In this document: positions 7,969 through 49,798 of the stretch, piece by piece | Layout of the letters: each line of letters begins with the position of its first letter | How positions within the stretch are numbered: position 1 is the stretch's first letter | Assembly: GCA_900770645.1 (NCBI GenBank) | Contig: CAAGKY010000102.1 | Span: forward strand, 1,053-65,052 | Reading direction: 5' to 3' | From: Bacilli bacterium | GTDB lineage: Bacteria > Bacillota_I > Bacilli_A > ML615J-28 > CAG-313 | Length of the DNA stretch: 64,000 nucleotides | Made by a program: the position numbers and the translations under genes | The notes under the pieces: model-generated | Database searches by the model: none | Told to the model about the DNA's origin: nothing | What the model saw: only the letters and a program-made list of their open reading frames with translations

Positions 7969-9036
7969 ATGGCACAAACTATTAATACAATTATTGTGTT
8001 AAGAAATGACCAAACAACTAACTGAGAAATCTCCTCTTATGTTATGCTTAAAGGTGAAGTTGGTATTGGTTATTTAAAAAATGGTAATGTTATTGCTAAG
8101 TTAGGTAATGGTGTCGATACTTGGAAAGACCTTCCTCAAATCGAAGGTGTATTCGAAGACGACGTAACATTAACTTATAACTTTGGTAAATACACTATCG
8201 ATTCAACAGTTGGTTATGTAAACGCTGGTGGTAAGGGTATGACTACTTCAGAATGGCTAATTGATGCCTTATCAGTAATTCAAGACCCAAATATTACTCA
8301 ACCTGAATGTTCATTATCAGCTTCTTGCACTGGTTCTGGAGCAGAAATTGGTTCAAAAATTACTAAGATCAATTGGGACGGAAATACAACTTTTGGAGAA
8401 TACGAATACGGTCCAGAAACTGGTTTAAGCGAAGCTAATAGAACTTGAACAATTTCTAATAATATTAATGATTTAACTTCTGAAGACGAAGATGGAAGTT
8501 TTGTAGTTGATATTCAATTAGATCAAGAAGCTAGTAAAACATATGCAGTGATTACTGGTAAATGCGTTTTAGACGCTTCAGAAGCTGCTTATGCAAAAAA
8601 TAATGTTGGTGCAACAACTACTTTACGCGTAAGTGGTTTAGATATTACTAAGACCGCTAATGCTACTGCTACAGCTTATAGAAAACCTTTCTGAGGCGTT
8701 CTTACTCCTGAAAGCGTAATTGATGTTGAAAACTTAACAAGTGAAATTATTAGAGGATTACCACAAAGTGGAACTTCAACAAAAGGTTTACCAAAATCTA
8801 TTTCAGTTCCAGCAGGAACTCAAATGGTAATCTTTGCTGCAAAAGCTGGTGCTTATAGCTCATTAACTGCTACAGATGATAAAGCTATGAATGCAACAGT
8901 AGGATTTACAAAAGTAGCTGATGCAGTTCAAGTTAAAGGTGCTAATGACTTTACTGCAACAGCCTACGATATTTGGTATGTTGACTGGCAAGCTGGTATT
9001 GGTTCAGCTAAACAATTAACATTAAAATGGGCATAA
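7969..9036 (+). CDS. fibre or baseplate-like structural protein (shared N-terminal motif)
   Basis: AAGGAG RBS. TGAs at conserved W (RNDQTTNW-EISSYVMLKGEVGIGY...KLGNGVDTWKDLP). One frame through 8448 and 8700 to TAA at 9034. Confidence 0.6.
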
Positions 9037-32737: not shown

Positions 32738-33769
32738 ATGTTTATTGGAGTTTTATTAGGAATTATTTTTGTTGCTGCTGCAATTGGTTTAGGTTTTGCA
32801 GCATATTCAGCTTTTGGTAATGAGCGAAGTGTAGGTGGAGCATTTTCTGTTGTTGGTTGTATTATTTTTGTAATTGCTTTTTTAGCTGTTCCATTTAGTA
32901 TTAGAACAGTAGATACTGGTAATATTGCAGTAGTTAAGCAATTAGGTGAAGCAAAATATACTAGATCTGCCGGAACTCATTTTGATTTTTGGATGACTAA
33001 GACTTATACTACATATGATGCGAAAGTTCAAAATGTAGATATTACTACACAAGCTTATTCAAGTGATGCTCAAACAATGGAGATTGCAATGACGCTTCAA
33101 TATCAAATTATTTCAGATAAAGTAGTTGATATTGCAAAAGAATATGGAACATTAGATATTTTACAAAATCGTATTCAAAGTATTGCGATAGAGAAAACAA
33201 AATCAGTATTATCAGCTTATAAAGCTATGGATATTATCGAAGATCGTGCTAAGATGTCACCGTTAGTAGAAGAAGCTATTAAAGAAGCTATTGGTGAAAA
33301 ATATTTTGTTACAGTACAAACTGTTGTGTTAACAGATATTTCATTCTCAGAAGCTTTTGAAAAAGCAGTTGAAGAAAAAATGGTAGCAGAACAAGCTAAA
33401 CTACAAAAAGATTATGAAAACCAAGCTGCTGAGGCTGCAGCAGAAACAGCTAAAAAAGTAGCTGAAATGCAAGCAGATGCAGAAGCTTATGCAAAAGAAA
33501 AAGCAGCTGAAGCAGAAGCAAAAGCTATTATTGCTAAAGCAGAAGCTGAAGCTGAAGCTTTAAATATTCAAACATTAGAAGTAGCTAAAATGCTAGGATT
33601 TACTGAAGTTGTAGATAATAAAGAACAAATTAAAGAAAATTTAACTTTAGAAGAAGCTAAATTAATTAAGGCATATATTGAATATATTAAATATATGGAA
33701 GCTTGGAATGGAGAATTACCAGATACTGTTGTTGGCAGTGATGCAAGTATAATTCTTCCAGCAAAATAA
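32738..33769 (+). CDS. SPFH/Band-7 (prohibitin/HflKC-like) membrane protein
   Basis: N-terminal TM segments, SPFH core and an Ala/Glu/Lys coiled-coil tail. Confidence 0.7.
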   Translation: MFIGVLLGIIFVAAAIGLGFAAYSAFGNERSVGGAFSVVGCIIFVIAFLAVPFSIRTVDTGNIAVVKQLGEAKYTRSAGTHFDFWMTKTYTTYDAKVQNVDITTQAYSSDAQTMEIAMTLQYQIISDKVVDIAKEYGTLDILQNRIQSIAIEKTKSVLSAYKAMDIIEDRAKMSPLVEEAIKEAIGEKYFVTVQTVVLTDISFSEAFEKAVEEKMVAEQAKLQKDYENQAAEAAAETAKKVAEMQADAEAYAKEKAAEAEAKAIIAKAEAEAEALNIQTLEVAKMLGFTEVVDNKEQIKENLTLEEAKLIKAYIEYIKYMEAWNGELPDTVVGSDASIILPAK

Positions 33770-33810
33770 AAAATATTTTTTAAAAAATAATTAAAATTTT
33801 GAAAAAAATA

Positions 33811-33828
33811 TTGTATAATATTATGTAA
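33811..33828 (+). promoter_or_regulatory. extended -10 promoter TTGTATAATATTATGTAA
   Basis: Consensus copy, directly upstream of a structured RNA region. Confidence 0.5.
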
Positions 33829-33840
33829 ACAAAAAGAGAT

Positions 33841-34000
33841 GTAGCGGATGCATGAGTTACTTCGTATAATGGTTAATACACTTTTCTTTTAAAAAAGCTA
33901 AGCTGGTTCGACTCCAGCAGTAAAATGCTCGTGCAGTTATTCACATCTTTTCTAACTTAATATTATTATTGACCTAGCGGTAACAGCAGTTACTTCGGAA
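33841..34000 (+). ncRNA. candidate structured ncRNA with a tRNA-like T-arm, possible Y-RNA-like partner of the Ro60-like gene
   Basis: Promoter-driven. Contains GCTGGTTCGACTCCAGC (canonical T-stem/loop) but no acceptor or anticodon partner. Direct repeat AGTTACTTCG appears twice. No ORF. Confidence 0.3.
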
Positions 34001-34135
34001 TTAAAATTAAACTACAAATTTTTTGATGAATATTTTTTTGATAGAAACATAAACTGCTGTTAAATATTCAGGTCAATTAAATTTACTATATATCTCTTTT
34101 TGTTACAAATATAACAAAAGGAGATTTTTTATTTT

Positions 34136-35794
34136 ATGTCAAAAATGTTAGACTCAGTTAAAGAAATTCGTTCAGATGTTAAATCAAAACAAGTTACAAA
34201 TTTTATGGGCGGAAATTCTTATGAATTAAACGCTATTGATACTTTAAAGATGATTACAGCTTCATCTATTTTTGGAGAACCTTCATATTACCGTAATGGT
34301 GAATTTGATGATGCAAAAATTACTGATGCATATTATGATGTTAATTCTTTATTTAAAGAATTTAGTGTATTAGATGATTCTAAATTCTCTGGTAAAAAAA
34401 CTTCTGAAATTATGGAACAAGTTATTGATGAAGCATTAACAGAAGATTTTGGGGCTGTTTTAGATTGGGCAGTTGAGCTACGTAAAAACTATTTAATGAG
34501 ATTAAACCCTCAAGTTATTATGGTACGTGCAGCTATGCATCCAAATAGAGTTAAATTTAATGAAGAAAATCCAGGTAAATTTAAAGAAACAGAAAAATTA
34601 GTTATGTCTCGTGCTGATGAACCTGCTTCTCAATTAACTTATTATTTATATAAAAATAAGAATAAAAATAATTTACCAAATATTTTAAAACGTTCTTGGG
34701 CTGAAAAATTAGGTAGTTTAAATGCATATCAAGTTTCAAAATATAAAAATACAGGTTTAGGAATGATCGACGTAGTTCGTATTTCACATGCAAAATCTAA
34801 AGTTTTAGATGAACTTATGAGAACAGGAACTGTTGTTGTAGCTGAAGAAGATAAAACTTGGGAAAATCTTAAATCAGCTGGAAAAACATGGAAAGAAATT
34901 CTTGAAACTATTAAATTAGGCCATATGGCTCTTTTAAGAAATCTTCGTAATATTTTTACAGAAATTGATGATAGAGCTATTTGTATTAAAGTTCTTGAAG
35001 ATTTAAAAGCTGGTGTTTTATCTGGTAAACAATTTCCATTTAGATACTATTTAGCATATAAAGCAGTTGAAGAGTCAAGTATGAACTTTAAACCACTAGT
35101 TTTAGATGCATTAGAAGAATGTATTGATATTTCATTAGATAACATGCCAAAACTTTCTGGTAAAACTATGACATTATCTGATAACTCTGGTTCTGCTTGG
35201 GGAACAATTCCAACAGAATATGGATCAGTTAAAGTTGCAGAGATTGATAACTTATCTGCTGTTATTACAGCAATGCTTTCTGATGAAGGTTATGTTGGTG
35301 TATTTGGAGATAAATTAGAAATTATTCCAATTAAAAAACGTGATGGTGTTTTATCTCAGATGAAACTTGTTACTGAAAAAGGTAGTAGAGTAGGTAGAGG
35401 AACAGAAAATGGTATTTGGTTATTCTGGGACAAAGCTATTAGAGAAAAAGAACATTGGGATAATGTATTTATTTATTCAGATATGCAAGCAGGTCATGGT
35501 GGATTATACGGTATTGATGCACACTGGTATAACGAATATAGATGTCGTGGTAGTTATATTGATGTTATGAAGCTAGTTTCTAAATATCGTTCAACAGTAT
35601 CTGGCATAGTAAATGTATTCTCAGTTCAAACTGCTGGATATACAAATGTAGTAATTCCAGAATATGCATATAGATCTAATGTAATGTATGGCTGGACAGG
35701 TAAAGAAGTTGTATTCGCTGACACAATGATTAATTTTTGGAATGAAAAAGATTTAGAGAGATTAATCAAAATTAGAAAAAATAATCAAAATTAA
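34136..35794 (+). CDS. Ro60/TROVE-like protein with C-terminal vWA domain (Rsr-like)
   Basis: 552 aa. Large alpha N-terminal region followed by a vWA MIDAS motif LSDNSGSAWG (DxSxS) at about residue 345. Flanked on both sides by ORF-free structured RNA and a tRNA island. No TGA. Confidence 0.45.
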   Translation: MSKMLDSVKEIRSDVKSKQVTNFMGGNSYELNAIDTLKMITASSIFGEPSYYRNGEFDDAKITDAYYDVNSLFKEFSVLDDSKFSGKKTSEIMEQVIDEALTEDFGAVLDWAVELRKNYLMRLNPQVIMVRAAMHPNRVKFNEENPGKFKETEKLVMSRADEPASQLTYYLYKNKNKNNLPNILKRSWAEKLGSLNAYQVSKYKNTGLGMIDVVRISHAKSKVLDELMRTGTVVVAEEDKTWENLKSAGKTWKEILETIKLGHMALLRNLRNIFTEIDDRAICIKVLEDLKAGVLSGKQFPFRYYLAYKAVEESSMNFKPLVLDALEECIDISLDNMPKLSGKTMTLSDNSGSAWGTIPTEYGSVKVAEIDNLSAVITAMLSDEGYVGVFGDKLEIIPIKKRDGVLSQMKLVTEKGSRVGRGTENGIWLFWDKAIREKEHWDNVFIYSDMQAGHGGLYGIDAHWYNEYRCRGSYIDVMKLVSKYRSTVSGIVNVFSVQTAGYTNVVIPEYAYRSNVMYGWTGKEVVFADTMINFWNEKDLERLIKIRKNNQN

Positions 35795-35815
35795 TTAAAT
35801 TTTAGAAAAATTTAT

Positions 35816-35831
35816 TGTATAATATAATAAT
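35816..35831 (+). promoter_or_regulatory. extended -10 promoter (TTGTATAATATAAT)
   Basis: Consensus-family copy preceding the RNA island. Confidence 0.45.
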
Positions 35832-36083
35832 CGGTATGGTGCATTCGTTAAATATCATCCTAAATTAATGGGTGCACTTGGCATCAATAAGTCAACCTCC
35901 ACGTGGTGATGCTGGATAATAAAAGGAGTCATGACCTTTTAAACTAATGACTAATAGTGTATGTAAACAGACACGAAGTATACAGAGAAGTGTTCGTCAC
36001 CTTGGCTAGATTGCGCGGAGCAACTGTAAGACCGAGGTCAGGGTAAGCTCGGCCGTTAGACCCAATACACTATTTATTTATTT
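35832..36083 (+). ncRNA. candidate structured ncRNA between the Ro60-like gene and tRNA-Met, a second Y-RNA-like candidate
   Basis: ORF-free and GC-elevated. Local hairpins CGAGGTCAGGGTAAGCTCG and CCACGTGG. Promoter upstream. Confidence 0.25.
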
Positions 36084-36161
36084 GGCGGGGTAGAGCAGCT
36101 TGGTTAGCTCGGGGTCCTCATAAGTCCCAGGTCGTGTGTTCAAATCACACCCCCGCAACCA
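36084..36161 (+). tRNA. tRNA-Met(CAU), initiator-like
   Basis: GGCGGGGTAGAGCAGCTTGGTTAGCTC...CTCATAA...GTGTGTTCAAATCACACCCCCGCAACCA is near-identical to E. coli tRNA-fMet. Position 1/72 mismatch (G1-A72). Encoded CCA. Confidence 0.85.
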
Positions 36162-36164
36162 TTT

Positions 36165-36238
36165 GGGCACTCTTATTGGTATCCTTTAAGAATTAGCGCT
36201 ACTTAAATGTCGAGGTTCGATTCCTCGGGTGTCCACCA
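36165..36238 (+). tRNA. degenerate tRNA-like element (no canonical anticodon arm)
   Basis: Acceptor GGGCACT/GGTGTCC with two G-U pairs. Perfect T-arm CGAGG-TTCGATT-CCTCG. Encoded CCA. I could not fold a D-arm or anticodon stem. Confidence 0.35.
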
Positions 36239-36241
36239 TAT

Positions 36242-36317
36242 CTGAGCTGATAGCTTAACACGGTAAAGCGCCTGCCCTGACCAGGTGGGAGTTGTGGTTC
36301 GATTCCACTGGCTTAGA
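36242..36317 (+). tRNA. tRNA-like, putative Gln(CUG) with non-canonical features
   Basis: Acceptor CTGAGCT/GGCTTAG (two G-U pairs). T-loop TTCGATT. Anticodon stem GCCTG/CAGGT. Loop CCCTGAC has C at position 33. Confidence 0.4.
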
Positions 36318-36481
36318 CTGTAACTTTAAAATCCTAGTTATTTTTAAGGTCAGGAAGTAGAGTAGCCGTAATTCCTGTAGCTATATTGGTAGTGCTTTAT
36401 AACTAAAAGATAAAAGTATATTTTTAATGGGAGTCACTAACCATATTAAAAATCTATGAATAGTCAAACGGTGAATTCTTT

Positions 36482-36556
36482 GGTGCTATAGTATATCGGT
36501 TAATATCACTGGTTGTCGCCCAGTAGCGGGGGGTTCGACTCCCCCTAGCACCGCCA
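36482..36556 (+). tRNA. tRNA-Asp(GUC)
   Basis: Acceptor GGTGCTA/TAGCACC. D-stem GTAT/ATAT. Anticodon arm ACTGG-TTGTCGC-CCAGT. T-arm GGGGG-TTCGACT-CCCCC. Encoded GCCA. Confidence 0.8.
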
Positions 36557-36633
36557 TATTCAAATTTAATTTTCATCGCCAAAATATGTGCTAAATTAAA
36601 TGTAAAAATATTTAAAATATGGAGATTTAATTT

Positions 36634-37386
36634 ATGTATAAATGTGAGTGTGGAAAAGAATTTGAAAAACCTAATAGCTTTAATGCACATAAATCTAACT
36701 GTAGAGAACATTACATAGCTAAATATGGTTCTGATAAAAAGTGGCTTGAAATTAAAGAACGACGTAGTAAAAATAGTTTAAATACAAGTAAGGTTAATTT
36801 CAAACAGAAACAAGTTGAAGAATTGAACATCTGACTTTCTGAACAACATACTTGTGAAAGATGTCATAAAATAATGACTAAATGATACGGTTCTGGTAGA
36901 TTTTGTTCTCAAAGTTGTGCTAATAGCAAAGATAATTCAGGTATGAAATATACTTGTAGCTGTCAGTATTGTGAGAAACAATTTGTAAAAGATACAGCTA
37001 AGGCTCGTCATGAAAAATATTGTGAGTTAAATACAAACAGACCACCTAAAGCGGGACAACATAAATATAGATTAGATAAAAGTGTAGATTTTTATAGAAT
37101 TGGTAGTATGCATCAGATATTAGTAAATACTATCGAAGATGTTGAAAATTATTTATCTGCACATCTTACTTGTGAAATTTGTGGCAAAACGGTTGAAGAA
37201 ACGGTCAAATGAAAGTCTAAACATGCACCTAAGCGTCTATGTGTAGATCATGATCATGCAACAATGCAGTTTAGAGGTGTTTTGTGTTCTGTTTGTAATC
37301 GTCAACTCGGATGATATGAAGCAAACAGAGAAGCTATTAATAAATATTTAGAAAAAGATTTTCCTCTAGAAGATAAATCAAAATAA
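36634..37386 (+). CDS. HNH endonuclease with N-terminal C2H2-like zinc finger (homing-endonuclease-like), several in-frame TGAs
   Basis: One frame through TGAs at 36832, 36883, 37210 and 37312 to TAA at 37384. HNH motif LCVDHDHATMQFRGVLCSVCNRQLGW. GSGRFCSQSCANSK is shared with the 50751 gene. Confidence 0.65.
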
Positions 37387-37717
37387 TATAGTAGCAGCGC
37401 GGTTTAGGGACGTGCATACAAATATTAGGGATTAGGTAGTTTAACTCTGATGTAACTACCAGTAGTGCAATTCTACCTACTATATTTTAAATATATGTGG
37501 TTTTAGTTTAAATATTATAAGAAAACACCAAGCAGAATTATGGTTAGATATCCTAGGAAATGTCTTATAAAATTCCATTAAGTGTAAGTAATCTTGGAGA
37601 GAAAAGTGCAAGACTTTTAGACCACCCAAATTAAAAAATAACAATGGTATCAAGGACTCAACCTAGATTTAAATTGATATAGAGTGTGATTTGAAGTTTA
37701 ATATCAGCCATATAATT

Positions 37718-37804
37718 GCTCGGATGGCGGAATAGGTAGACGCGCAGGACTTAAACTCCTGTGGCCGAAAGGTCGTGTGGGTTCAATTCCCACTCTGAGC
37801 ACCA
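37718..37804 (+). tRNA. tRNA-Leu(UAA), type II
   Basis: Acceptor GCTCGGA/TCTGAGC. Anticodon arm CAGGA-CTTAAAC-TCCTG. Long variable arm. T-arm GTGGG-TTCAATT-CCCAC. Encoded ACCA. Confidence 0.85.
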
Positions 37805-37977
37805 ATTAAAAAGAGATTAAGTCTTTTCTTGCGTTAATAAAAGCAAGTGGTGCCCGAAGAGAGTTTCCAATGATCTTTCACTAAAACATTGGTGGTGGAA
37901 AGGACATGGATTCTGCAGCGTGTCTTTCCGGTTTACTGCAGAGTTAGATTGTTAGCTATTAATAGTTAACAATTTAC

Positions 37978-38054
37978 GGATCCTTAGCTCAGTTGGTTAG
38001 AGCTACCGGCTCATAACCGGTCGGTCCCGTGTTCGAGTCACGGAGGATCCACCA
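37978..38054 (+). tRNA. tRNA-Met(CAU), elongator or Ile2 lysidine type
   Basis: GGATCCTTAGCTCAGTTGGTTAGAGCT ACCGG-CTCATAA-CCGGT ... CCGTG-TTCGAGT-CACGG AGGATCC ACCA. Confidence 0.85.
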
Positions 38055-38124
38055 TAAAACAAAAAATATTTAAAAAATAATTAAAATTAATTAAATTTTA
38101 GAAAAATTTATCGTATATTATTAT

Positions 38125-38170
38125 AGAACGGGCCACAAAATTAGCTGCTTGAGTGTTGGCCCGTGCTCAA
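38125..38170 (+). other. H-type pseudoknot-like RNA element
   Basis: GGGCCA...GCTTGAG...TGGCCC...CTCAAGC gives interleaved complementary segments between two AT-rich promoter-like stretches. Confidence 0.3.
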
Positions 38171-38227
38171 GCCAAAAATAAAAATAATTTAAAATTTATA
38201 AAAATATTAAAAATTATACTGTTTATA

Positions 38228-38245
38228 TTGTATAATATTATGTAA
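38228..38245 (+). promoter_or_regulatory. extended -10 promoter TTGTATAATATTATGTAA
   Basis: Consensus copy upstream of the intron-containing tRNA. Confidence 0.5.
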
Positions 38246-38332
38246 CTAAGTGAGTATTTATATTTTATTAAAAAATGATTCCCTATGATTACTTATGTCA
38301 TTTCTTTCATAAGTGCTCACCTAGTTTTATAT

Positions 38333-38625
38333 AGGGGCTTCGTACAACGGCAGTACATCGGTCTTTTTGAAAAAACAGTGGCCAACCACTTATGGAGCAC
38401 CTAGTTGGAAACATCTAGTGTGAATGCTGGCTAATTCGGCGAAGGTTGGAGAACGCCGAGCTAAGTGGAAAGTAATTTCCTAAATGTGTAGAGACTATAC
38501 ACCAGCTACCTAAACAGAAATGCACGGTAAAGACATAGTCCACTAAGATTAACGTATTCTTATGTCAAGAACTAACTTCTTAGGCAAAACCGCGAATGTG
38601 GGTTCGATTCCTACAGCCCTTACCA
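38333..38625 (+). tRNA. tRNA gene interrupted by a group I intron of about 220 nt; anticodon unresolved (Lys or Leu candidates)
   Basis: 5' exon: acceptor AGGGGCT, D-arm GTAC-AACGGCA-GTAC, anticodon stem TCGGT. 3' exon: T-arm GTGGG-TTCGATT-CCTAC, acceptor AGCCCTT plus ACCA. Interior carries group I P7 elements R-like GTAGAGACTATAC and S-like AAGACATAGTCC. Confidence 0.55.
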
Positions 38626-38738
38626 TTTAAAAAATTCAAGCACGATTAATTTCGTGCTTTTCTTTTATTTTGCACTAAAATTAGCTTTATTTTTATCGTA
38701 TAATATTATATATAATGAATATAATGGAGGTTATTAAT

Positions 38739-39527
38739 ATGAAAAAAATTCTTATTACTGCAGGCCCTACTAACGAGTACATTGATGAGGTAATGAAAAT
38801 TACTAATATGTCAACTGGTCGTCTAGGTATTGAGCTATCTCGTGAACTAACTGCTCGAGGAAATGAAGTTACATTAATTTGTACAAGAAGCGTTGCTAGA
38901 AGTGGATTATATGAAAGATATAATCTTGCCAACAATGATAAATTAAAAACAATTCAAATTGAAACTACTGACCAAATGCTAATGGCGTTAGCTGATGAAA
39001 GCACAAGTGGTACAGTTTATGACTTAGTTGTTCATGCTGCAGCTGTTGGAGATTATAAAGCGGATTTCAGTTTTAGAATGGAAGATATGGCTTTAGAAAT
39101 TGCTGAATACTTACATAATAAATATGATGAAATTCCTAGTATTTGCGATTTCCATCAAGACATTTTGAAAATTATGACAAACCCTAAATGTAAAGTTAAT
39201 GATGATACTAAGATTTCGTCTTATGAGCCAAATTTAACAGTTAAATTAGGATTAACTCCAAAATTAATTTCTCATTTAAAAGAATGGTTCCCAGAAGCTA
39301 CTTTAGTTGGATTTAAATTATTAGAAAATGTTACAAAAGATCATATTATTGATGTTGCTACAAAACTATGCAATAAAAATAATATGAACTACATTATTGC
39401 TAATGATTTACATGATCTTCGTCAAGGTAAACATATTAGTTATTTAGTAGATAAAAATGGTTATTGTAATTTTGATTTTCATTCACCTGATGATATCGCA
39501 AATAAAATTATTAGCTTTGTAGAATAG
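38739..39527 (+). CDS. CoaB-like (phosphopantothenate-cysteine ligase / DFP family) protein
   Basis: GGAGG RBS before ATG at 38739. KKILITAGPTNEYIDEVMKITNMSTGRLG resembles the CoaB signature (ITAGGT.E.ID.VR.I.N.SSG..G). Confidence 0.5.
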   Translation: MKKILITAGPTNEYIDEVMKITNMSTGRLGIELSRELTARGNEVTLICTRSVARSGLYERYNLANNDKLKTIQIETTDQMLMALADESTSGTVYDLVVHAAAVGDYKADFSFRMEDMALEIAEYLHNKYDEIPSICDFHQDILKIMTNPKCKVNDDTKISSYEPNLTVKLGLTPKLISHLKEWFPEATLVGFKLLENVTKDHIIDVATKLCNKNNMNYIIANDLHDLRQGKHISYLVDKNGYCNFDFHSPDDIANKIISFVE

Positions 39528-39538
39528 GAGAAATAATT

Positions 39539-40048
39539 ATGCCTAAATATAGAGTAAAATATACATTTGAAGTAGAAGTTGAAGCTCCAAATAAAAATAT
39601 TGCAAAAATTAATGCTGATTATCATTTAGATAATGACCTTGACGAATATTATTTATGGGATTATGAAACACATACCGAAGTTGTTGAGTTAGAAGTTCCA
39701 GAAGATTTAAAAGAAGAAATAGAAACAGGTAAAGATATCGCATTGAGCTTTGAATTCAAAGATAATTATGATCCTATTACCGATGAATTTGTAGCAGATG
39801 AATTCATTAAAGATGAAAATCTTAGAAAAATGATTTGGCCGGAAGATGAAAATAAAGTTTTTCTTACTGACGATTCTGAAGTAATAGAAATAAAAGACAT
39901 AAAAACAAAAAAACCATCTGAGTTATATGCACAACGTATGCATATGAGTGGGATAAAATATACTTGTACAGATTGTCCCGATTGTGTCAAATGTAAATAT
40001 GCTTTTGATGACTATTGCACAGATGGTGATTGTTTAATGGAAAAATAA
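39539..40048 (+). CDS. acidic protein with a C-terminal Cys cluster
   Basis: GGAGAAATAATTATG. C-terminus CTDCPDCVKCKYAFDDYCTDGDC. Confidence 0.5.
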   Translation: MPKYRVKYTFEVEVEAPNKNIAKINADYHLDNDLDEYYLWDYETHTEVVELEVPEDLKEEIETGKDIALSFEFKDNYDPITDEFVADEFIKDENLRKMIWPEDENKVFLTDDSEVIEIKDIKTKKPSELYAQRMHMSGIKYTCTDCPDCVKCKYAFDDYCTDGDCLMEK

Positions 40049-40082
40049 ATTCTAAAGTCACTAAATCTTCAGAAAAAATTAT

Positions 40083-40098
40083 TGTATAATATTATGGT
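40083..40098 (+). promoter_or_regulatory. extended -10 promoter (TTGTATAATATTATGG)
   Basis: Consensus copy directly upstream of an ORF-free, GC-elevated segment. Confidence 0.5.
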
Positions 40099-40099
40099 A

Positions 40100-40510
40100 T
40101 ATATCTCCTGGCAGTGCTGGGTAAGTGGCCAATTGGATGAAACTCGCTGGTGCGACCCCAATTACGGCAAGGTATATAGGAGAAGGAAAACTCCTCAAAC
40201 CAGCCTTGACTTCGTGTTAAGGTCTTGGACAACTCGAGTGTCGAGTGGGTGTTAACAGCCCTTATAAGGAATGATTGTGGCAGGGGCCACTCCTTCGTGG
40301 ACATTCCCTATATAAAGTGTTAATTGCCCCCACGTAGGGCTCGACTAAGTATGGATAGTTACAAATCATTGCCCGCTGCTTGGTCAATTTGTGTATATAT
40401 CGAGAGGCTTGATGTATACCAACCTAGCACTAACACTATTACTTGGGTAGGGTCTATGCGACCTTCGCCTTCAAAATTATTAAATGCGCGCGGTGTTAGT
40501 GCTTCTTTGT
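40100..40510 (+). ncRNA. candidate structured ncRNA of about 400 nt (unknown family)
   Basis: Promoter-driven. GC-elevated. No credible ORF. 5' motif TCTCCTGGCAGTGCTGGGTAAG recurs at 48723. Many short GC stems. Confidence 0.4.
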
Positions 40511-40637
40511 AATAAGCATAGATAAAAAACAATATTATAGTAATGGTGAATGAAATAGTATTGGAAACCTGTAAGACTAAGTTATATTAAACTTGATAGT
40601 TTCTTTGTCTATGCTTACTAGAAAGAGAGACTAGTGT

Positions 40638-40865
40638 ATGAAGCTAACTAAAAGAACAATAAAAAAATTAGAAAAGAAATACAATAAAGAAGCTCAAAAG
40701 GAAACTAGAAAAGTAGTTGTTTGTAAAGACTGTGGAAACTTATTTCCTATTGAGGAGACTTATATTGAATTTGATCTACAAACAAGTGAAAAAGAATTTC
40801 AATGTCAATATTGTAATGATAAAGAGCCTAAGGGCACATTAGAAGATTTACTAAACGCGGTATAA
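40638..40865 (+). CDS. small zinc-ribbon protein
   Basis: CKDCGN...CQYCND motif. Confidence 0.5.
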   Translation: MKLTKRTIKKLEKKYNKEAQKETRKVVVCKDCGNLFPIEETYIEFDLQTSEKEFQCQYCNDKEPKGTLEDLLNAV

Positions 40866-41433
40866 TTATGATAAAATGTAAAGTTTTTACTTCGACAGAT
40901 AGTAATTGGATTAACCAATTAATTGAAGAATACTATAAACAATATGAAGTTATAGATATTAAATTTTCTACAACTGATGCTGCTGGCAACGCTTTTGATA
41001 GAAGAGATGTAAAATATAGTATTATGATTATTTATAAGTAAGGGAGAAATAATAATGCCAAAATTTTATGTAAGTTTTGATTTAGGAATGGAAATCTACG
41101 CTGATAATGAAGACGAAGCTAGAGAGTTTTTTATATCTGAAATAGAATCTCGTATTTATGGTTTTAGTGAAGACAACATTGATGTAGAAAAACTAGAAGA
41201 GGTTGATGGTAATGAAGAAGAATAAAGATATTAAATCATTAAATACTTTATTTGTAACATCATTTCTTATTTTTGTTTCAAGTTTTATTGTTGTTATAAT
41301 TCTTTATGTCATCAAAATAGTTATTATGCTATATGTTTTGTAGGAACATTTTCCTCATTAGTGCTTTGTACTTCTGTATTAAATGAGTGTAAAGAAATAG
41401 AAGACGATAAAAAATAGTATCGCAGAAGATAGA

Positions 41434-41730
41434 ATGGAAGAAATAATTATGATAGAAGCTAAAGATGCAATTTTTGTAGACTTAGATATAATTGAAAAAG
41501 TATTAGAAGTTATTGATTATATTGATTATGAAAAACTTAAAAGAGTATTTATAGTTTTAGTTCAAAATATATTTAGTAATGAAGATTTTTCAATTGAGGA
41601 AAAAGTTAAGGAGAGATTATTAAAAATCGAACCAAAAATTTATAGATATCTTGAAACATTAGAAGATTCAGATAAAAAGATTGGTTATTTTGACGCAATA
41701 TTTGAATTGATTGCAGAAACATTAGCATAG
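41434..41730 (+). CDS. hypothetical protein
   Basis: ORF with RBS. Confidence 0.45.
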   Translation: MEEIIMIEAKDAIFVDLDIIEKVLEVIDYIDYEKLKRVFIVLVQNIFSNEDFSIEEKVKERLLKIEPKIYRYLETLEDSDKKIGYFDAIFELIAETLA

Positions 41731-41740
41731 GAGAATAATT

Positions 41741-42379
41741 ATGACTAAAAAATACAATTATATAGATGACTTTGATAAACGATATATAACAACATATACT
41801 TTAAAAGATGGAGAAAAGTATATGGAAACTTCTTATAATTATCCAGATTTAGCTAATTATATTTGTCCACACTGTGGCACATATCCTATGAAATATCATA
41901 AAGTAGATTTAGGGGAGTGGGATGGTTGGAGAACAGAATTCGGTTGTATAGCTTGTATGTCAAGATATGAAGAGGGTGATAAGAGTTTAAAGCCTGCACC
42001 TATCAAAGATTTTGATGATATTGTTGAAGTTGTTAACACAAAAGTTGTCGAACCTAAATCTCGCAATGTTAAATATACAGATGAATTTTTAAAAAAAGCT
42101 AAAGACTCAATCAATAAATGTATAGCTACTAATCGAGATATCCAAACCTCAAGATTTAGTGATATTCCAAATATTAAAGAGTGTCTTACTATACCAACAA
42201 CTCCGATAACTGATGCTAGTTTTACAATTGTAGAACCTAGTGATGAAATATATTTAGGTAATAAATGTATTATTTGTGGCAGTCATAATTGTGAAATTGA
42301 TAGCATGATTTGTAAAGATTGTAAAGATGCTGTTGCATTTGCTAAACGTTTACGAAATGAGGAAAATAAATATGAATAA
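41741..42379 (+). CDS. hypothetical zinc-finger protein
   Basis: CPHCG...CIAC and CIICGSHNCEIDSMICKDCKD clusters. Confidence 0.5.
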   Translation: MTKKYNYIDDFDKRYITTYTLKDGEKYMETSYNYPDLANYICPHCGTYPMKYHKVDLGEWDGWRTEFGCIACMSRYEEGDKSLKPAPIKDFDDIVEVVNTKVVEPKSRNVKYTDEFLKKAKDSINKCIATNRDIQTSRFSDIPNIKECLTIPTTPITDASFTIVEPSDEIYLGNKCIICGSHNCEIDSMICKDCKDAVAFAKRLRNEENKYE

Positions 42380-43133: not shown

Positions 43134-44123
43134 ATGAATAAAAAAAGAATGGTAAGCGGGATCAAGCCTACGGGAAAAATTTCAATCGGAAATTATTTAG
43201 GCGCAATTAAACAATTTATTAACTATCAAGATGAATATGATTTATATGTATTTATTGCTGATTTACATGCTCTAACTTTACCAATTGATCCGGAAGAATT
43301 AAAACAAAATATTGAAGATTTAGTTGCTATTTATTTAGCTTGTGGATTAGACCCAGAAAAATGTAAAATTTTTAAACAATCTCAAATAATTGGTCATACT
43401 GATTTAAGTTGGATTTTAACATGTAATTCTAATGTAGGTGATTTTACTAAAATGCCTCAATATAAAAATTATATTGAAAAAAATAGTACTAATGGTGTTC
43501 CAGCTGGAATGTTAATGTATCCAGCATTAATGGCAGCAGATATTTTATTATATGATGCTGATTACGTTCCTGTTGGAATTGATCAAATGCCTCATGTTGA
43601 TTTATGTAGAGATATGGCAGAAAAGTTTAATAAACGCTTTCCAGATACTTTTAAATTGCCTTCTGGTGTTTTAAATAGAACAACTAGTAAAATCATGAGT
43701 TTATCAAATCCAACGCGAAAAATGAGTAAATCTGAGTCTGATAAAGGAACAATTTATTTATTAGATGACATTGAAGTTTCTAAGAAAAAAATTATGAAAG
43801 CTTTAACAGATTCTGAAAATAAATTTTATTATGATCCTTTCTTAAAACCAGGCCTATCTAACTTAATTAATATTTATTCAGCATTATCTGGACAAGCTGT
43901 TGAAGAAGTTGTTGAACAATACAGAGATTCTGAAAATTATGGCGTTTTTAAAAGAGCTTTATGTGAACTGTTAGAAAAAGAATTACTTCCAATTCAAGAA
44001 AGAGTGAAAGAAATTAAAGAAAGTAAATCTTATGTTCAAGTATTACAAGATGGTAATTGGGCAGCTCACGATCTAGCTTTTTCAAAGATGAGAGAAGTTT
44101 ATAAAAAATTAGGTTTAAAGTAA
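43134..44123 (+). CDS. trpS: tryptophanyl-tRNA synthetase
   Basis: Near full-length collinear similarity to bacterial TrpRS. SGIKPTGKISIGNYLGA (HIGH-region equivalent), ADLHALT, MYPALMAADILLY, KMSKS. 329 aa. No TGA; all Trp codons are TGG. Confidence 0.95.
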   Translation: MNKKRMVSGIKPTGKISIGNYLGAIKQFINYQDEYDLYVFIADLHALTLPIDPEELKQNIEDLVAIYLACGLDPEKCKIFKQSQIIGHTDLSWILTCNSNVGDFTKMPQYKNYIEKNSTNGVPAGMLMYPALMAADILLYDADYVPVGIDQMPHVDLCRDMAEKFNKRFPDTFKLPSGVLNRTTSKIMSLSNPTRKMSKSESDKGTIYLLDDIEVSKKKIMKALTDSENKFYYDPFLKPGLSNLINIYSALSGQAVEEVVEQYRDSENYGVFKRALCELLEKELLPIQERVKEIKESKSYVQVLQDGNWAAHDLAFSKMREVYKKLGLK

Positions 44124-44510
44124 ATGAAACATTATTTTTATTTATTAGTTGCAGGATCTAGAGATTTTAATAACTATGATTTACTAGAAGAGTTCATTGA
44201 TTATTCTTTAAGATATAGAACTGAACCCATTTGTATCGTTTCAGGCGGTGCAAGAGGTGCTGATACATTTGCTAAGCAATATGCCATTGATAGAGGCTTT
44301 AGCTATATTGAATTTCCAGCAGATTGAAATAAATATGGAAAATCTGCAGGCTATATTAGAAACGAAGAAATGCATAAATTTATAGCTCAGTTTGAAAATA
44401 GAGGTGCAATATATTTCTGGGACGGAAAATCTCGAGGTACAGCTCATAATTTTGATTTAGATTTAAAATATAAGATTAAAAATTTTATTATAAAATATAA
44501 AGAACTTTAA
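44124..44510 (+). CDS. SLOG/DUF2493-like Rossmann protein
   Basis: VSGGARGADTFAKQYA motif. One in-frame TGA at 44325. Ends TAA at 44508. Confidence 0.45.
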
Positions 44511-44555
44511 AAATAAATATTGTATTATATTATATATAACACAGGAGGATTTATT

Positions 44556-45086
44556 ATGTTTAATATTAATTTCAATGCAAAAGATACAACTTGGACTCCA
44601 GCAATGGAAGAACATGCTAGAAAAGTAATTGAAAAAATCTTTACTCGCATTGCAATACCTACAGAAGCAAGTTTTTTTGTTAAAACATCGATTATCGATA
44701 AGAAAACAAAAATGATTAAAGTTGAATTAAGTGGTGCTGGATTTAGAGCTCAAAGTGTAAATAAAGATTTTTATGCAGCAATGACCGCTGTAACTAATAA
44801 ATTTAAATCTTTAATATTAAAACAAAATAAAAAATATGTAACAAAGAAAAAACATATTACTTTTGATGATGATAGTTTCTTAGAAAACGATTCTATCGAT
44901 GTTAATAATTTAATTACTAAAGAAAAAGTATTTATCATTGATGAGTGCTCTTTAGAAAAAGCTATAACAAAATTTGAGCAAACAGACTACTCATTCTATA
45001 TTTTTAAAGAGTTAGATTCAGATGATGAAATGGCTGTATTATATAGACGTGCTGATGATACTCTTGGTATTATTAGATGTCGCTAG
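44556..45086 (+). CDS. hpf: ribosome hibernation promoting factor (HPF/RaiA, long form)
   Basis: AGGAGG RBS. N-terminus MFNINFNAKDTTWTPAMEEHARKVIEKI and FYAAMTAVTNKFKSLILKQNKK are collinear with bacterial HPF/YfiA. Confidence 0.65.
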   Translation: MFNINFNAKDTTWTPAMEEHARKVIEKIFTRIAIPTEASFFVKTSIIDKKTKMIKVELSGAGFRAQSVNKDFYAAMTAVTNKFKSLILKQNKKYVTKKKHITFDDDSFLENDSIDVNNLITKEKVFIIDECSLEKAITKFEQTDYSFYIFKELDSDDEMAVLYRRADDTLGIIRCR

Positions 45087-46652: not shown

Positions 46653-46727
46653 AGGGCTTTAGCCAAGCGGTAAGGCATCAGACTTTGACTCTGACATTCG
46701 TTGGTTCAAATCCATCAGGTCCTGCCA
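46653..46727 (+). tRNA. tRNA-Gln(UUG)
   Basis: Acceptor AGGGCTT/AGGTCCT with G-U pairs. Anticodon arm TCAGA-CTTTGAC-TCTGA. T-loop TTCAAAT. Encoded GCCA. Confidence 0.65.
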
Positions 46728-46802
46728 ATTATCAAATTGAGTCACTTTTTATTATGAATTCTTTATTTGATTTTTCGACGGAAATGTTATTTAAGGACAA
46801 TT

Positions 46803-46902
46803 CTTTTAAAAAGCGGGACTGCTCAACTAATGATAGATTCGCGGTATGATTTAGTTGTGTTGGTAGTTCGATCCTGCCCAATTTGACCGTAATAGTCATT
46901 GC
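46803..46902 (+). other. tRNA-like T-arm remnant plus 8-bp hairpin
   Basis: GGTAG-TTCGATC-CTGCC T-arm-like with no complementary acceptor found. Followed by GTAATAGT-CATTGCGT-ACTATTAC hairpin. Confidence 0.2.
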
Positions 46903-47005
46903 GTACTATTACTCTATGCCTAAGGTGAGATTATTTATTTAATCTGCTTCGTTCTAACAGTATTTTTGGACTGTAATCCTATTTGAGCCTTAATAGGTAA
47001 TTTAT

Positions 47006-47077
47006 GGATATTTAGTGTATGTGGTCAGCACATTAGCTTTATGCCGTGAAGAGTTGGTTCGAGTCCAACAATATCCA
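47006..47077 (+). tRNA. degenerate tRNA-like element (acceptor, D-arm and T-arm intact; no anticodon stem)
   Basis: Perfect acceptor GGATATT/AATATCC. D-stem GTGT/GCAC. T-arm GTTGG-TTCGAGT-CCAAC. Region 28-46 has no complementary 4-mers. Confidence 0.35.
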
Positions 47078-49250
47078 TCGGATCGTACTCTAGAAATCTT
47101 CGGAACTAGGGTTAGCAATTATGCTTAAAATAATCGCGCCACAGGTTGTGACAGGGGTGGTTGTACGAAGAAGCAGGTGTACGTAAAATAACCAAGGATT
47201 ATTAAGATGAGTCAGTGCGGACCACCTGAGGGTTGAAGAAGGCATGGAATAACCATTGGTCTTAATAATGAATTACAAAAACCAGTAATACCACAATGGC
47301 CGTAAACCGTATACGACTCTGGTTGAAGTAGGAGGCACATCGCTGAAATGCGAAGTTAACAAGTAAAAACGGTTTGAGTCAGGGTGATATCTGACAAGTA
47401 CCAGGTGGTAATGGTCATATTGTATAGGTTTTTAATAAGTTTATACTATACAAAATTATGGAGTATTATAAGTTTTTATAGCACCCCTATAAAAAGAGGC
47501 CCTTATAGTACAGAATTATAAAATAACTTAATAGTCGTTGAAAGTGGTATCCATCGGCTGGGATTGAATAGAGTTATAAGATACCCTCTATTCCGGATAC
47601 GTTTAAGGGTAAGACGATAACGAGGCCTATTATTTGGCTAATAATAGGGAAAACCCTTTTGGATCATACTTTAGTTTCTTCGGAGCTAAGGTTTTAAAAA
47701 ATTATTGGGCTGGGCGAAAGCTCTTGGTCCACCAACGACGGGGAATTGCCTCGTCTGGTGTTCAGCGAAAGCTGATAAGTTTATTAAGGGCGAAAGGTGT
47801 TGCGACACCAAGTAGCGATATACACGAGGTTGCGGAGATGCATGTGCGACTCATACAACACCGGCAGGGGGCTAGTTTAAGAGTACAATACCGCTCAGTG
47901 TATAGCTAGGCAACGTAAGTTGTAACAGATAATTCGAGAGTGGTAGAATTTTTGGGTTATCTTAAACGTATTTCTGCGGCAGCAATTGAGCTGTTCTAAG
48001 GAATATAAGAGTATTCAATATGTGTCATGGAGAATACTGCATTTAGGTGTTAGGAACGGACTGTAAGTAAGAAGACAGTATCAGAGATTTAACGACTGAT
48101 TTAGACTTCTTCTCCCTGACTAATTAAATGGAGTGTGATGAACAGCCTAAAATTGTTAAACGGTTCGGGTATACATCGAGAGTATACATTGCTAATCTGT
48201 GGATTAGTTATCTTATTAGTTTCCTGTTCATTTGTGAATTGAGGTAAAGCAATAAGCAAAAGCTAATAATTTTGATCACTTACCGTTGGTGAGATGTGAC
48301 CTCCACTTGGTTGATAACTAGAGTGGCATTAAACTGCCGAATGACTATTCCTTGGGCCAAGGATACGGAAACCTCAGAAGCGGAAATCGCTAACCGTGAT
48401 TGTCATTGCACGTCGGAAACCCTTTTCCGTAAAATTGGGGACTTAATAGTAACTAGGTTAAAAAACTACTATTGATGTCGCGTATCGTCAGCCGATCTAG
48501 TAGGCTTGTGTTAGTACTAACAGGGACGCTCTCTGTAATCCTACAAGCGATAGTAGGTAATTTTATTATAGTGGCTTTTGTATTAGACATTAGTTATTTA
48601 TAATAAAATTTATAACAAGTGTGGTTTCTACTATAAGTGAGGCCAACTAGCAGTAAGTCTAATTTTATATTTAGGATGTCGACAGATATAGATTAGCAAC
48701 TAGTATATATTTCTATTATTATATAATTCCTGGCAGCGCTAGGTTTAGCAAAGTTGAACGTAAAAAGATGGGTGTCTCAGTTCTAAGAAGTAAGTTATAT
48801 AAAATAGAAATTTGTAGACTTCTCCATCAGGCCTCTGCCTTTTGGTATGCACACTTGATGGCGATCTGCCAAATAGATCCATACACGCCGCCATTGTTGT
48901 TTTTGGGTTAATGTACTATTGAGCATGCAGGTCTTTGGACTTCAGTAGAGTTAACTCTGTGGTAATAAGTCTGTTTGTCAGACTCGGCGTACCATGTATG
49001 GCCATTTAATGCTCTTCAGGCAGTCTGTAAGAGTAGTATAGTAGTAAATTTTCTTCCCGCACCTCGGCAAGACAGCGAGACAGTTTGTGCATGTGCCCCA
49101 GGGAAGCAGAGCTTGATATCTCTATCGTCTCAAAAGTTATCCGTAACATTGAGCGCAGGTAAGCTAATTTAGTCTTGACCTGGACCGTGATAAAAACTTC
49201 CTTTACGTGAATGAGGACCTGACTGAGGATATGTTAGAAGTCAGAGCGCT
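47078..49250 (+). ncRNA. about 2.1-kb ORF-free, GC-elevated segment between tRNA genes: candidate giant structured ncRNA(s) or intron
   Basis: No ORF over 91 aa in any frame even allowing TGA. The two track ORFs (47634..47909, 48975..49172) lack an RBS and end at TAG. GC clearly above the genome background. Multiple GNRA-type hairpins (ACGGAAACCT, AGCGGAAATCGCT, CGGAAACCC). Internal promoter-like TATATAAT at about 48700 followed by TCCTGGCAGCGCTAGG. Confidence 0.45.
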
Positions 49251-49335
<85 letters not shown>

Positions 49336-49357
49336 TTTATAACAATTTAAATTAAGA

Positions 49358-49798
49358 GTGATTTTTATGAAAAATAAAGAAGAAAAATTAGAGATTAAAG
49401 CTAGAAAACAAGAGAAAAAAAGATTTTTCAAATGGCTTAGACAAAAACGTAAAGTTTATTTAAAATTCTTTAAGTCTTGGGCCCCATGGGACTCTTATTA
49501 TATCTATACTCCTCTTAAAATGATGCTACAAGATTTTTATGAATACTATAAAAACGGTGATTGGGTTATGGGAATTCCAATAACTACTGATGAAAATGGT
49601 AATTGTATTCAAAAAGATGATAGATTAGATACTTTAAAGATAGTATTAGATTTAATTCAAAAAGCTGAAGATTTAGAAGATAAAACAGATACTATTTTAG
49701 ATATAAATGAAGCAAATGCTATTTGGGAAGAAGCTAATAAAACTTTAGTTGAAGCTTTTGCTTTTATGGCTAAACATATGAGTAGTTGGTGGGATTAA
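49358..49798 (+). CDS. hypothetical protein
   Basis: ORF immediately after the tRNA. Confidence 0.45.
   Translation: MIFMKNKEEKLEIKARKQEKKRFFKWLRQKRKVYLKFFKSWAPWDSYYIYTPLKMMLQDFYEYYKNGDWVMGIPITTDENGNCIQKDDRLDTLKIVLDLIQKAEDLEDKTDTILDINEANAIWEEANKTLVEAFAFMAKHMSSWWD

Follow-up and report, generated by a model that had tools for sequence, protein, structure and literature searches.

What does a phage tRNA cluster encode where its protein genes stop? Within a 64,000-nucleotide (nt) stretch of contig CAAGKY010000102.1 (the window, to whose positions all coordinates refer unless another sequence is named), the segment at 47078-49250 lies between tRNA genes, and the initial annotation, made from the letters alone, proposed these roughly 2.1 kb as one or more candidate giant non-coding RNAs (ncRNAs). 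The segment belongs to a real, conserved island of structured ncRNA, of the GOLLD and ROOL kind but modular, and it holds a known RNA motif, DUF3800-XI, in a new, gene-less phage context. Modules A and B, a variable linker (C), Module D, an AT-rich Segment E, and Module F follow one another along it (Table 1).

The segment is non-coding. As first claimed, no stop-to-stop frame of at least 100 codons occurs between the two bounding tRNAs (47000-49300), either under genetic code 11 or with TGA read as sense (code 4), and the longest has 98 codons; a recoded or spliced protein gene was looked for at these settings, and no such frame was found. With TAG as sense the longest frames reach 101 and 105 codons, and longer ones open only when TAA is read as sense, a reading without support. 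The sole small open reading frame (ORF) that looks conserved, a 39-amino-acid (aa) frame in Module D (48128-48247), was rejected as a small protein and is deleted in L027 and L028 (L numbers denote the sequences used for comparison). The elevated guanine-plus-cytosine (GC) content is likewise borne out, at 0.36-0.42 over 47001-49500 vs 0.25-0.30 in the flanking coding DNA. So are the tRNA flanks: the segment is bounded exactly by one tRNA (47005-47079) and by tRNA-Leu(gag) (49251-49335), each encoded on the + strand. The segment is thus real, but its first limits are too narrow: the non-coding island begins further 5′, at tRNA-Ser 46459, and takes in a conserved 277-nt spacer (46728-47004) that lies outside the coordinates originally given and is part of the same RNA island. 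The minimum free energy (MFE) z-score of this spacer is -2.4 on the + strand vs -1.05 on the - strand.

Other parts of the initial description did not hold. The "many" GNRA hairpins number four on the + strand vs 2.0 ± 1.4 in dinucleotide shuffles, 76 of 500 of which reach four, and enrichment of GNRA and UNCG hairpins in the segment is not significant. Neither is it unusually rich in hairpins, with module MFE z-scores of -0.2 to -2.4 that overlap coding controls. The coding density elsewhere, put above 90%, measures 0.70 under code 11 and 0.83 with TGA as sense (coverage of the window by frames of at least 100 codons).

The evidence for a functional RNA comes from relatives. These were drawn from contigs carrying homologues of the neighboring TrpRS, of which gut and rumen assemblies hold many at 75-85% identity, and from pattern scans. 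Five further distinct versions of the block of modules were obtained (L013, with L014-L016 nearly identical, L019, and L042; L027 from IMG/VR; L028 from a Joint Genome Institute (JGI) metagenome), along with a distant version in L010 and L048; three contigs (L011, L012, and L044) do not have the block at the syntenic position. Across genomes the block measures 1.4-2.5 kb. It starts just after a tRNA in all relatives except L013, and its 3′ end meets the first base of a tRNA in every one. The order B-D-F is kept in L013-L016, L019, L027, L028, and L042; D and F are present in all five relatives, and A is present at the block in L019, L028, and L042. Identity to L019, L028, and L042 is 85-93% for A and 97-98% for B (79-85% for B against L013 and L027), that of D is 90-94% in five relatives, and that of F is 67-87%. 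Adjacent protein genes in the same genome pairs share 69-86%, with one exception at 96%. In the closer relatives (85-98% identity) A, B, and D therefore exceed most adjacent protein genes, which points to selection acting on the nucleotide sequence itself.

Base pairing is conserved as well. For F, RNAalifold gives 76 pairs with 96% of cells paired, and 24 pairs show double changes, compared with 11.6 ± 2.0 in shuffles (none of 500 reaching 24) and 1-3 when partners are slid. The 125 pairs predicted for D are 97% paired and include 12 with double changes, against 4.4 ± 1.5 in shuffles (again none of 500 reaching 12) and 1-3 for slid partners. The covariation check with related phages that the initial annotation suggested thus came out in favor of RNA structure, with compensatory changes in D and F well above both controls. 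In A, folded by RNAalifold from four sequences, 10 of 115 pairs carry compensatory changes, long-range helices included. Insertions and deletions (indels) sit at helix tips and in linkers and spare the cores, while numerous G-U pairs and the lower energies of the + strand fit a + strand RNA. These comparisons support the view that the segment encodes a conserved structured + strand RNA co-oriented with the tRNAs.

Is this one RNA or several? In the core alignment from B through F, every supported helix is local, and a single global fold for B-D-F was rejected because the only long-range helix predicted has broken pairs and no covariation. A profile of A matches L027 at 8610-8406, 2.8 kb from the D-F block of that contig and 44 nt after its tRNA-Leu(tag). 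Since no helix between modules is supported and A stands elsewhere in L027, several RNAs are indicated rather than one giant RNA, and we regard the block as separable RNA units strung together in a chain. In L010, moreover, tRNA-Met and tRNA-Asp stand between the B motif and the other non-coding stretches. What survives of the giant-ncRNA proposal is therefore the non-coding structured RNA; the single molecule does not, given the local folds, the displaced A, the splitting off of B in L010, and the insertion E.

Segment E is missing from L013, L019, L028, and L042, and in L027 its position is taken by 100 nt of unrelated sequence. Segment E contains a terminator-like hairpin (48540-48557) followed by a U-run, a promoter-like region (48693-48727, with TATAAT at 48722-48727), and the conserved start UUCCUGGCAGCGCUAGGU. 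The internal promoter first placed near 48700 does have consensus matches at 48679-48722, but such matches are common in DNA as AT-rich as this (42 vs 27 expected). Stronger support comes from the sequence at 48714-48744, which resembles the promoter and RNA start of another ncRNA, at 40090-40122, in 27 of 33 bases. Because the insertion combines a terminator-like hairpin with a promoter-like site, F probably has its own promoter and transcript in this window.

Table 1. Features of the RNA island, followed by further features of the window and its relatives
Feature	Position	Strand	Remarks
Conserved spacer, tRNA-Gln to next tRNA	46728..47004	+	90-94% identity in L019, L028, L042; no ORF
5′ boundary tRNA, called Ile(tat)	47005..47079	+	ARAGORN; Rfam tRNA 42.3 bits, non-standard pairs
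UUCG-capped hairpin after GGAUCGUAC, repeat copy 1	47081..47113	+	Direct repeat with 47661-47693, spacing 580 nt
Module A, ~475-nt structured RNA domain	47116..47590	+	Start always shortly 3′ of a tRNA
Module B	47590..47760	+	Found in all relatives
Module B 5′ part	47590..47705	+	Hairpins 47626-47648 and 47661-47693 (UUCG copy 2), then A-rich linker
Module B core, DUF3800-XI motif	47706..47755	+	Rfam RF02975
Variable linker C	47756..47918	+	~160 nt here and in L028; ~650-720 nt in L013, L019, L042
Module D, ~495-nt domain	47919..48413	+	Long invariant runs, optional peripheral hairpins; closing helix 48133-48141 / 48403-48411
Segment E, AT-rich insertion (390 nt)	48414..48805	+	Only in this window among the blocks compared
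Module F, ~445-nt structured domain	48806..49250	+	Abuts next tRNA directly
3′ boundary tRNA-Leu(gag)	49251..49335	+	CCA encoded; ARAGORN; Rfam tRNA 45.1 bits
TrpRS class I (PF00579) and S30AE/HPF ribosome hibernation factor	43134-45086		Translation-related cargo
Ro60/TROVE-like RNA-binding protein, 552 aa	34136-35794		phrog_850 'RNA-binding protein' match
Second gene-free stretch	40060-40630		GC 0.42; promoter-like TGTATAAT/TATATAT, then ~420 nt non-coding
Sites where TGA as sense was observed	Whole window; L010 11363-11400; L013 6411-6487; L019 547-620		

Several features of the island lie between or within the modules. The 5′ boundary tRNA has no encoded CCA and weak anticodon-stem pairs, and its homologues of about 90% identity are called Gln(ttg) in L019 (9230-9299) and L028 (158-228); it may be atypical or decaying. 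The pattern of the repeated UUCG hairpin is unique in the window, and the chance expectation is zero matches. Both hairpins of the 5′ part of Module B retain pairing through compensatory changes in L013 and L027. Inside linker C a conserved block (47786-47820) reads AAGGGCGAAAGG-hairpin-AAGUAGCGAUA, and its hairpin (47796-47809) keeps its pairing through compensatory changes, distant L010 included. The D sub-hairpins at 47973-48038 and 48147-48273 are missing in L028, while D of L019 and L042 carries a 115-nt insertion. Separately, 30 nt of L005 (11346-11375), directly before a tRNA-Val in an unrelated phage tRNA array, are 87% identical to the invariant AAAUGGAGUGUGAUGAACAGCC region of D, a likeness whose E=0.003 comes from a small database and may reflect chance.

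Module B connects the island to a known RNA. Rfam was searched at the gathering score and then at E≤10 over 46700-49400. This check, proposed with the initial annotation, matched none of GOLLD, ROOL, HEARO, group I or II introns, RNase P, and transfer-messenger RNA (tmRNA), but it did reveal an element that the annotation had missed, the DUF3800-XI motif (RF02975). It lies at 47706-47752 with 53.6 bits vs a gathering score of 37.8 (E=2e-10) and covers model positions 1-48 of 48. The motif was described by Weinberg et al. 2017 (PMC5737381) as one of 11 DUF3800-associated RNA motifs, which were reported as functionally unexplained (PMC5737381). DUF3800 itself has an RNase H-like fold and has been linked to retron type VII, Cas12a2/a3 loci, and mobile elements (PMC7736814; PMC10910872; PMC13594972).

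Hairpin 1 of the window copy (47706-47731, U GGGCUGG..GAAA..GGUCC A) is followed by single-stranded CCAAC and hairpin 2 (47737-47755). The copy shares with the family its two hairpins as well as the conserved sequence UGGGCUG...GGUCCACC. However, the family is defined by proximity to a DUF3800 gene, with a terminator before that gene in the loci examined in metagenome-assembled genomes (MAGs), whereas the window copy lies in a phage tRNA and ncRNA island, lacks the U-run, has a cow-rumen-3-like 5′ extension, and has no DUF3800 gene within the 64 kb. The motif is conserved in L010, L013, L019, L027, L028, and L042, and gene-less DUF3800-XI also occurs in the tRNA arrays of unrelated 139-176 kb phages (L001, L004, and L005). 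Searches by tblastn with 15 downstream proteins (mostly DUF3800), under codes 11 and 4, found no DUF3800 gene in the window or in the available DNA of its relatives. The same approach detected nothing in the gene-sized linker C of L013 and L019, so a DUF3800 pseudogene there was rejected. In IMG/VR, a single close relative of the MAG DUF3800 protein was found, on an unrelated 5.5-kb contig.

The putative bacterial counterparts have a consistent architecture. When one genome from each bacterial species was scanned for hairpin 1 in its group-specific form, 13 loci were returned, 10 of them in low-GC (26-34%) gut and rumen MAGs of Acholeplasmatales, Mollicutes-like Bacilli, Anaeroplasmataceae, and Clostridia. 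Where the flank suffices, these MAG loci run in the order promoter-like sequence, short hairpin, motif, U-run after hairpin 2, ribosome-binding site (RBS), and ORF, with the RBS and ORF following within about 45 nt. The downstream ORFs are mutually homologous by tblastn, and Pfam PF12686 (DUF3800) was matched on two scanned proteins, from MAG L036 and IMG/VR L006. The MAG leaders score 28-37.4 bits against RF02975, just below the gathering score (E 1e-4 to 0.03). Hairpin 1 of L013 and L027 equals that of MAGs L032, L034, and L036 over 26 of 26 bases, variable loop included, and hairpin 2 of these phages and the MAGs is also very similar. After hairpin 2, host copies read AUUUUUU or UUUUAUUUU, and phage copies UGGUGUU, AGCUAUA, or ACAUAUU; the U-run before a gene that would give hairpin 2 a terminator role, as in the MAG leaders, is therefore lacking in the phage copies. 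Phage B keeps both hairpins and the conserved single-stranded ACC. As separate observations, the DUF3800 locus of MAG L036 (100-6300) adjoins large uncharacterized ORFs and a transposase-like ORF (translations read by eye), and in L035 (700-1650) a group II intron domain stands beside a frameshifted DUF3800 gene.

The hairpin that begins the motif recurs in other catalogued RNAs. Besides DUF3800-XI, the only Rfam family found within the segment is cow-rumen-3 (RF03083), through a weak full-length alignment at 47608-47733; at 22.5 bits (E=0.03) it falls far below the gathering score of 86.7, and the window RNA is thus not a member. The cow-rumen-3 model nevertheless has the UGGGCUG...GGUCCACC hairpin as its 3′ end, and drum (RF02958) overlaps the DUF3800-XI start in L002 (11384-11537), L003, and L009 (3610-3763), so that both families end in or abut the same hairpin. 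Drum, cow-rumen-3, and DUF3800-XI may be parts of related composite RNAs with interchangeable 5′ domains on one hairpin.

On balance, and with slightly more confidence than doubt, these observations are read as an ncRNA island in a phage tRNA cluster that consists of at least four independently folding, movable modules, of which B would act in trans as a copy of a DUF3800 RNA. Transcription of the + strand would run through tRNAs and RNA modules together, and cuts by RNase P and by enzymes of 3′ processing would release the modules where they border tRNAs. We infer excision by tRNA enzymes from the tight fit of the block, which leaves no gap before the downstream tRNA and follows closely on the upstream one. 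Modules A, B, D, and F are separately movable and joined by fast-changing linkers. In the presumed hosts, low-GC gut and rumen bacteria, the DUF3800-XI RNA has its own promoter, ends at a terminator, and lies directly before the DUF3800 gene. A phage copy acting in trans would then be a surplus of this host RNA and would bind or titrate either the DUF3800 protein or what is sensed by the leader.

By analogy, B might blunt a host nuclease in the way that pseudo-ToxI neutralizes ToxN. ToxI, a 36-nt sequence repeated in tandem, is cleaved by ToxN, and Blower et al. reportedly described, in 2012, a pseudo-ToxI of phage PhiTE that mimics this type III toxin-antitoxin RNA and neutralizes ToxN. The likeness lies in a host locus of small RNA, terminator, and nuclease gene and in a phage that has the RNA copy without the nuclease, the logic proposed for B. 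The DUF3800-XI RNA differs in being single-copy and structured, and both the toxicity and the RNA binding of DUF3800 are putative. No ToxI-like tandem repeat array was seen in the host leaders or the phage block, which were read without a dedicated tandem-repeat finder. Since only the order of RNA, terminator, and nuclease gene is common, and this in the hosts, ToxI offers an analogy rather than a family to which B belongs.

Several points weigh against this interpretation of the island. The covariation derives from six distinct sequences, and each structure was scored on the alignment that had yielded it, so that the contrast with the slid controls is inflated; the D core, being nearly invariant, is silent for or against pairing. 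The genomes of these phages are larger than 100 kb, and should DUF3800 be encoded beyond the sequence examined, B would be the phage's own partner RNA. Similar GC content and a common motif are the sole basis for the host assignment, DUF3800 as a defense toxin is itself only putative, and the proposed partner covers B and not A, D, and F.

A bolder form of the proposal would have the tRNA islands of these recoded gut phages double as arsenals of decoy RNAs, with B as a stolen copy of the host RNA that controls or partners DUF3800, set free from the tRNA precursor by tRNA-processing enzymes to disarm the nuclease in trans, and with A, D, and F as mimics of host RNAs or as self-assembling particles; it is offered tentatively and is considered rather unlikely. 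About equally doubtful is the possibility that the block, or D-F, is a functional analogue of GOLLD (RF01998) and ROOL (RF03087), a large self-assembling multimeric RNA that acts on translation or tRNAs during infection. GOLLD and ROOL are large, conserved, structured RNAs of phage tRNA islands, with conserved domains, variable linkers, and unknown function (PMC5737381; PMC12286853). The window block is likewise a large conserved structured ncRNA with variable linkers in a phage tRNA island, and its new structured RNAs, A, D, and F, resemble GOLLD and ROOL in setting and size. The suggestion of the initial annotation that the segment belongs with GOLLD, ROOL, or HEARO is therefore apt for the phage tRNA-island setting of GOLLD and ROOL. 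Family membership fails: none of the three is matched even at E≤10, and GOLLD and ROOL are also absent at the gathering score from L010, L013, and L019. For HEARO, the IscB omega RNA (RF02033), no ORF in the region could encode an IscB or HNH protein either.

The functional analogy with GOLLD and ROOL draws on an arrangement common to them and the block, in which the 3′ part is conserved, the 5′ parts and linkers vary, and tRNAs sometimes lie inside (PMC12286853), on the constant order of B, D, and F in five genomes, and on the translation-related genes of the phage, TrpRS and the S30AE hibernation factor. The 3′ end of F adds a further point. There, a hairpin (49219-49224 / 49239-49244) precedes the palindrome AGCGCU (49245-49250), and in L042 a different palindrome, GACGUC, takes its place; palindrome switching of this sort has been taken as evidence of intermolecular pairing in OLE and GOLLD (PMC12286853). 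However, the switch is a single event, the modules move independently and have no supported helix joining them, and an insertion with terminator-like and promoter-like elements separates D and F in the window. The block also shows no sequence or structure similarity to GOLLD and ROOL, is longer, and consists of separable modules rather than one fold.

A different possibility is that the phage Ro60/TROVE protein has one or several of the modules as Y-RNA-like partners, which would tether it to RNA-processing enzymes, as bacterial YrlA RNAs do. Bacterial Y RNAs are modular and have a tRNA-like domain. The window encodes the 552-aa phrog_850 match, and its counterparts in L013-L017 and L045 give weak TROVE matches. 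Rfam detects no Y RNA around the TROVE-like gene (33500-41800), and the first hairpin of B is reminiscent of a tRNA acceptor helix. In the phage group and the low-GC MAG leaders this hairpin reads U|GGGCUGG...GGUCC-A-CCA, which resembles the acceptor helix of tRNA-Ala and tmRNA (U|G-C, G-C, G-U, then A-CCA) without a T-loop. Other members of the family have G, C, or U following ACC, so the likeness to CCA is not general and can only be taken as a lead. As the Rfam models of Y RNA and YrlA are also unmatched in the segment at E≤10, 11 kb separate the island from the TROVE gene, and the B motif elsewhere accompanies DUF3800 genes rather than Ro, this partnership is held to be quite improbable.

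Less probable still, and disfavored, is that the region is mostly spacer or selfish DNA, made of decayed tRNAs, captured host DNA including a DUF3800 leader, and insertions, whose only fate would be to be processed away, without a function of their own. Large indels and lineage-specific insertions (C, E, and the 115 nt in D), unremarkable folding z-scores, and the rarity of the family would fit such an origin. A blastn search with the 2.17 kb found no match among GenBank phages and PLSDB plasmids, two neighboring window proteins used as queries retrieved no related loci in IMG/VR, and exact matches to window proteins were absent from the assembly index. Scans of IMG/VR with 17- to 30-mers of D and F gave only L027 as genuine; L049-L051 were rejected as chance 17-mer matches in GC-rich coding DNA. 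One JGI metagenome contig matched exactly a 30-nt D pattern whose 27 fixed positions made it over-specific. Profiles of A, D, and F run with nhmmer found no matches in the host MAG loci, other phages, or distant relatives, while the positive controls worked. Set against a spacer origin are the conservation of A, B, and D above adjacent protein genes, compensatory changes far above the shuffled and slid controls, the placing of indels outside the cores, and the lack of any DUF3800 pseudogene remnant by tblastn. Recorded by eye in the distant version L010 is a repeated unit of about 110 nt (TATCGGTGCA...CGTTCAYCGAGGCG...TTCACNNTAAGCAA; 8490-8600 and 10575-10665) after TATAAT- or TATAGT-like boxes; these units resemble additional genes for small RNAs within the tRNA island of L010.

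Largely refuted is the remaining set of readings, as ORF-less group I or II introns (an alternative in the initial annotation), theta ribozymes of the hepatitis delta virus (HDV) type, or a protein gene that is spliced or recoded: TGA is probably a sense codon in this phage and the boundary tRNA lacks CCA, but no intron or HDV-like family is matched at E≤10, the flanks are complete tRNAs with no split host gene, and frames of at least 100 codons are missing under either code, with the ORF at 48128-48247 lost in L028 and L027. The intron search was able to find introns, as it detected the group II intron in L035. Theta ribozymes, minimal HDV-like RNAs, immediately follow the 3′ ends of tRNAs in gut phages with recoded genomes (PMC10879173), and the window RNAs also abut tRNA genes in a gut phage that probably uses an alternative code; however, no HDV-like fold can be drawn at the window tRNA junctions, and a ribozyme after the tRNA was rejected because GGAUCGU has no P1 partner ACGAUCY within 100 nt downstream of 47080 (by reading, with no dedicated descriptor search). 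A tmRNA, raised by the GGGCUG...UCCACCA ends, was rejected as well, with neither ARAGORN nor Rfam giving a match and with no T-arm or tag frame. RNase P RNA was set aside in the same way, having no Rfam match and no P4-type sequences; the idea had arisen from the likeness of AAGGGCGAAAGGUG to GGGUGAAAGGGUG, which we take to be a conserved stretch of E. coli RNase P RNA.

The setting of the island is that of a phage. The window has an overall GC of 31% and phage-type genes for topoisomerase II subunits, TrpRS, an S30AE hibernation factor, and a Ro60-like RNA-binding protein, and all 12 tRNA genes called by ARAGORN lie on the + strand. Gene calls on related contigs run through TGA, and relatives encode an anticodon-UCA tRNA beside the phage TrpRS. 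From this read-through, that tRNA, and the rise in long-frame coverage with TGA as sense, it is very probable that the window belongs to a large AT-rich phage using code 4. No close relative of this phage was found among GenBank phages. Relatives also encode ribosomal protein S21, and L014 has an EF-P gene in a stretch not common to its near-identical contigs. The second gene-free stretch (40060-40630) gives no Rfam match, and its ~420-nt non-coding part is 92% identical in L019-L024; it is probably another uncatalogued phage RNA. Between tRNA-Leu and tRNA-Met, at 37820-37906, a wcaG RNA match stays below threshold (27.7 bits vs 42, E=0.05).

The large RNAs of phage tRNA islands, GOLLD and ROOL among them, are a standing puzzle. 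With the present island, another phage lineage contributes three or more structured modules that are strongly conserved and uncatalogued, and the island shows that phage RNA islands can be mosaics of separable units. It also connects a phage RNA with an orphan RNA-protein pair of bacteria, in which the DUF3800-XI motif goes with the RNase H-like protein DUF3800. The presence in the phage of the RNA without the protein hints at action in trans with DUF3800, possibly exploited by phages. Three Rfam entries, DUF3800-XI, cow-rumen-3, and drum, have one hairpin in common and are perhaps pieces of related composite RNAs. If the decoy arsenal were true, such islands would form a new class of RNA-based anti-defense island and would provide a first functional handle on DUF3800 and its 11 orphan motifs.

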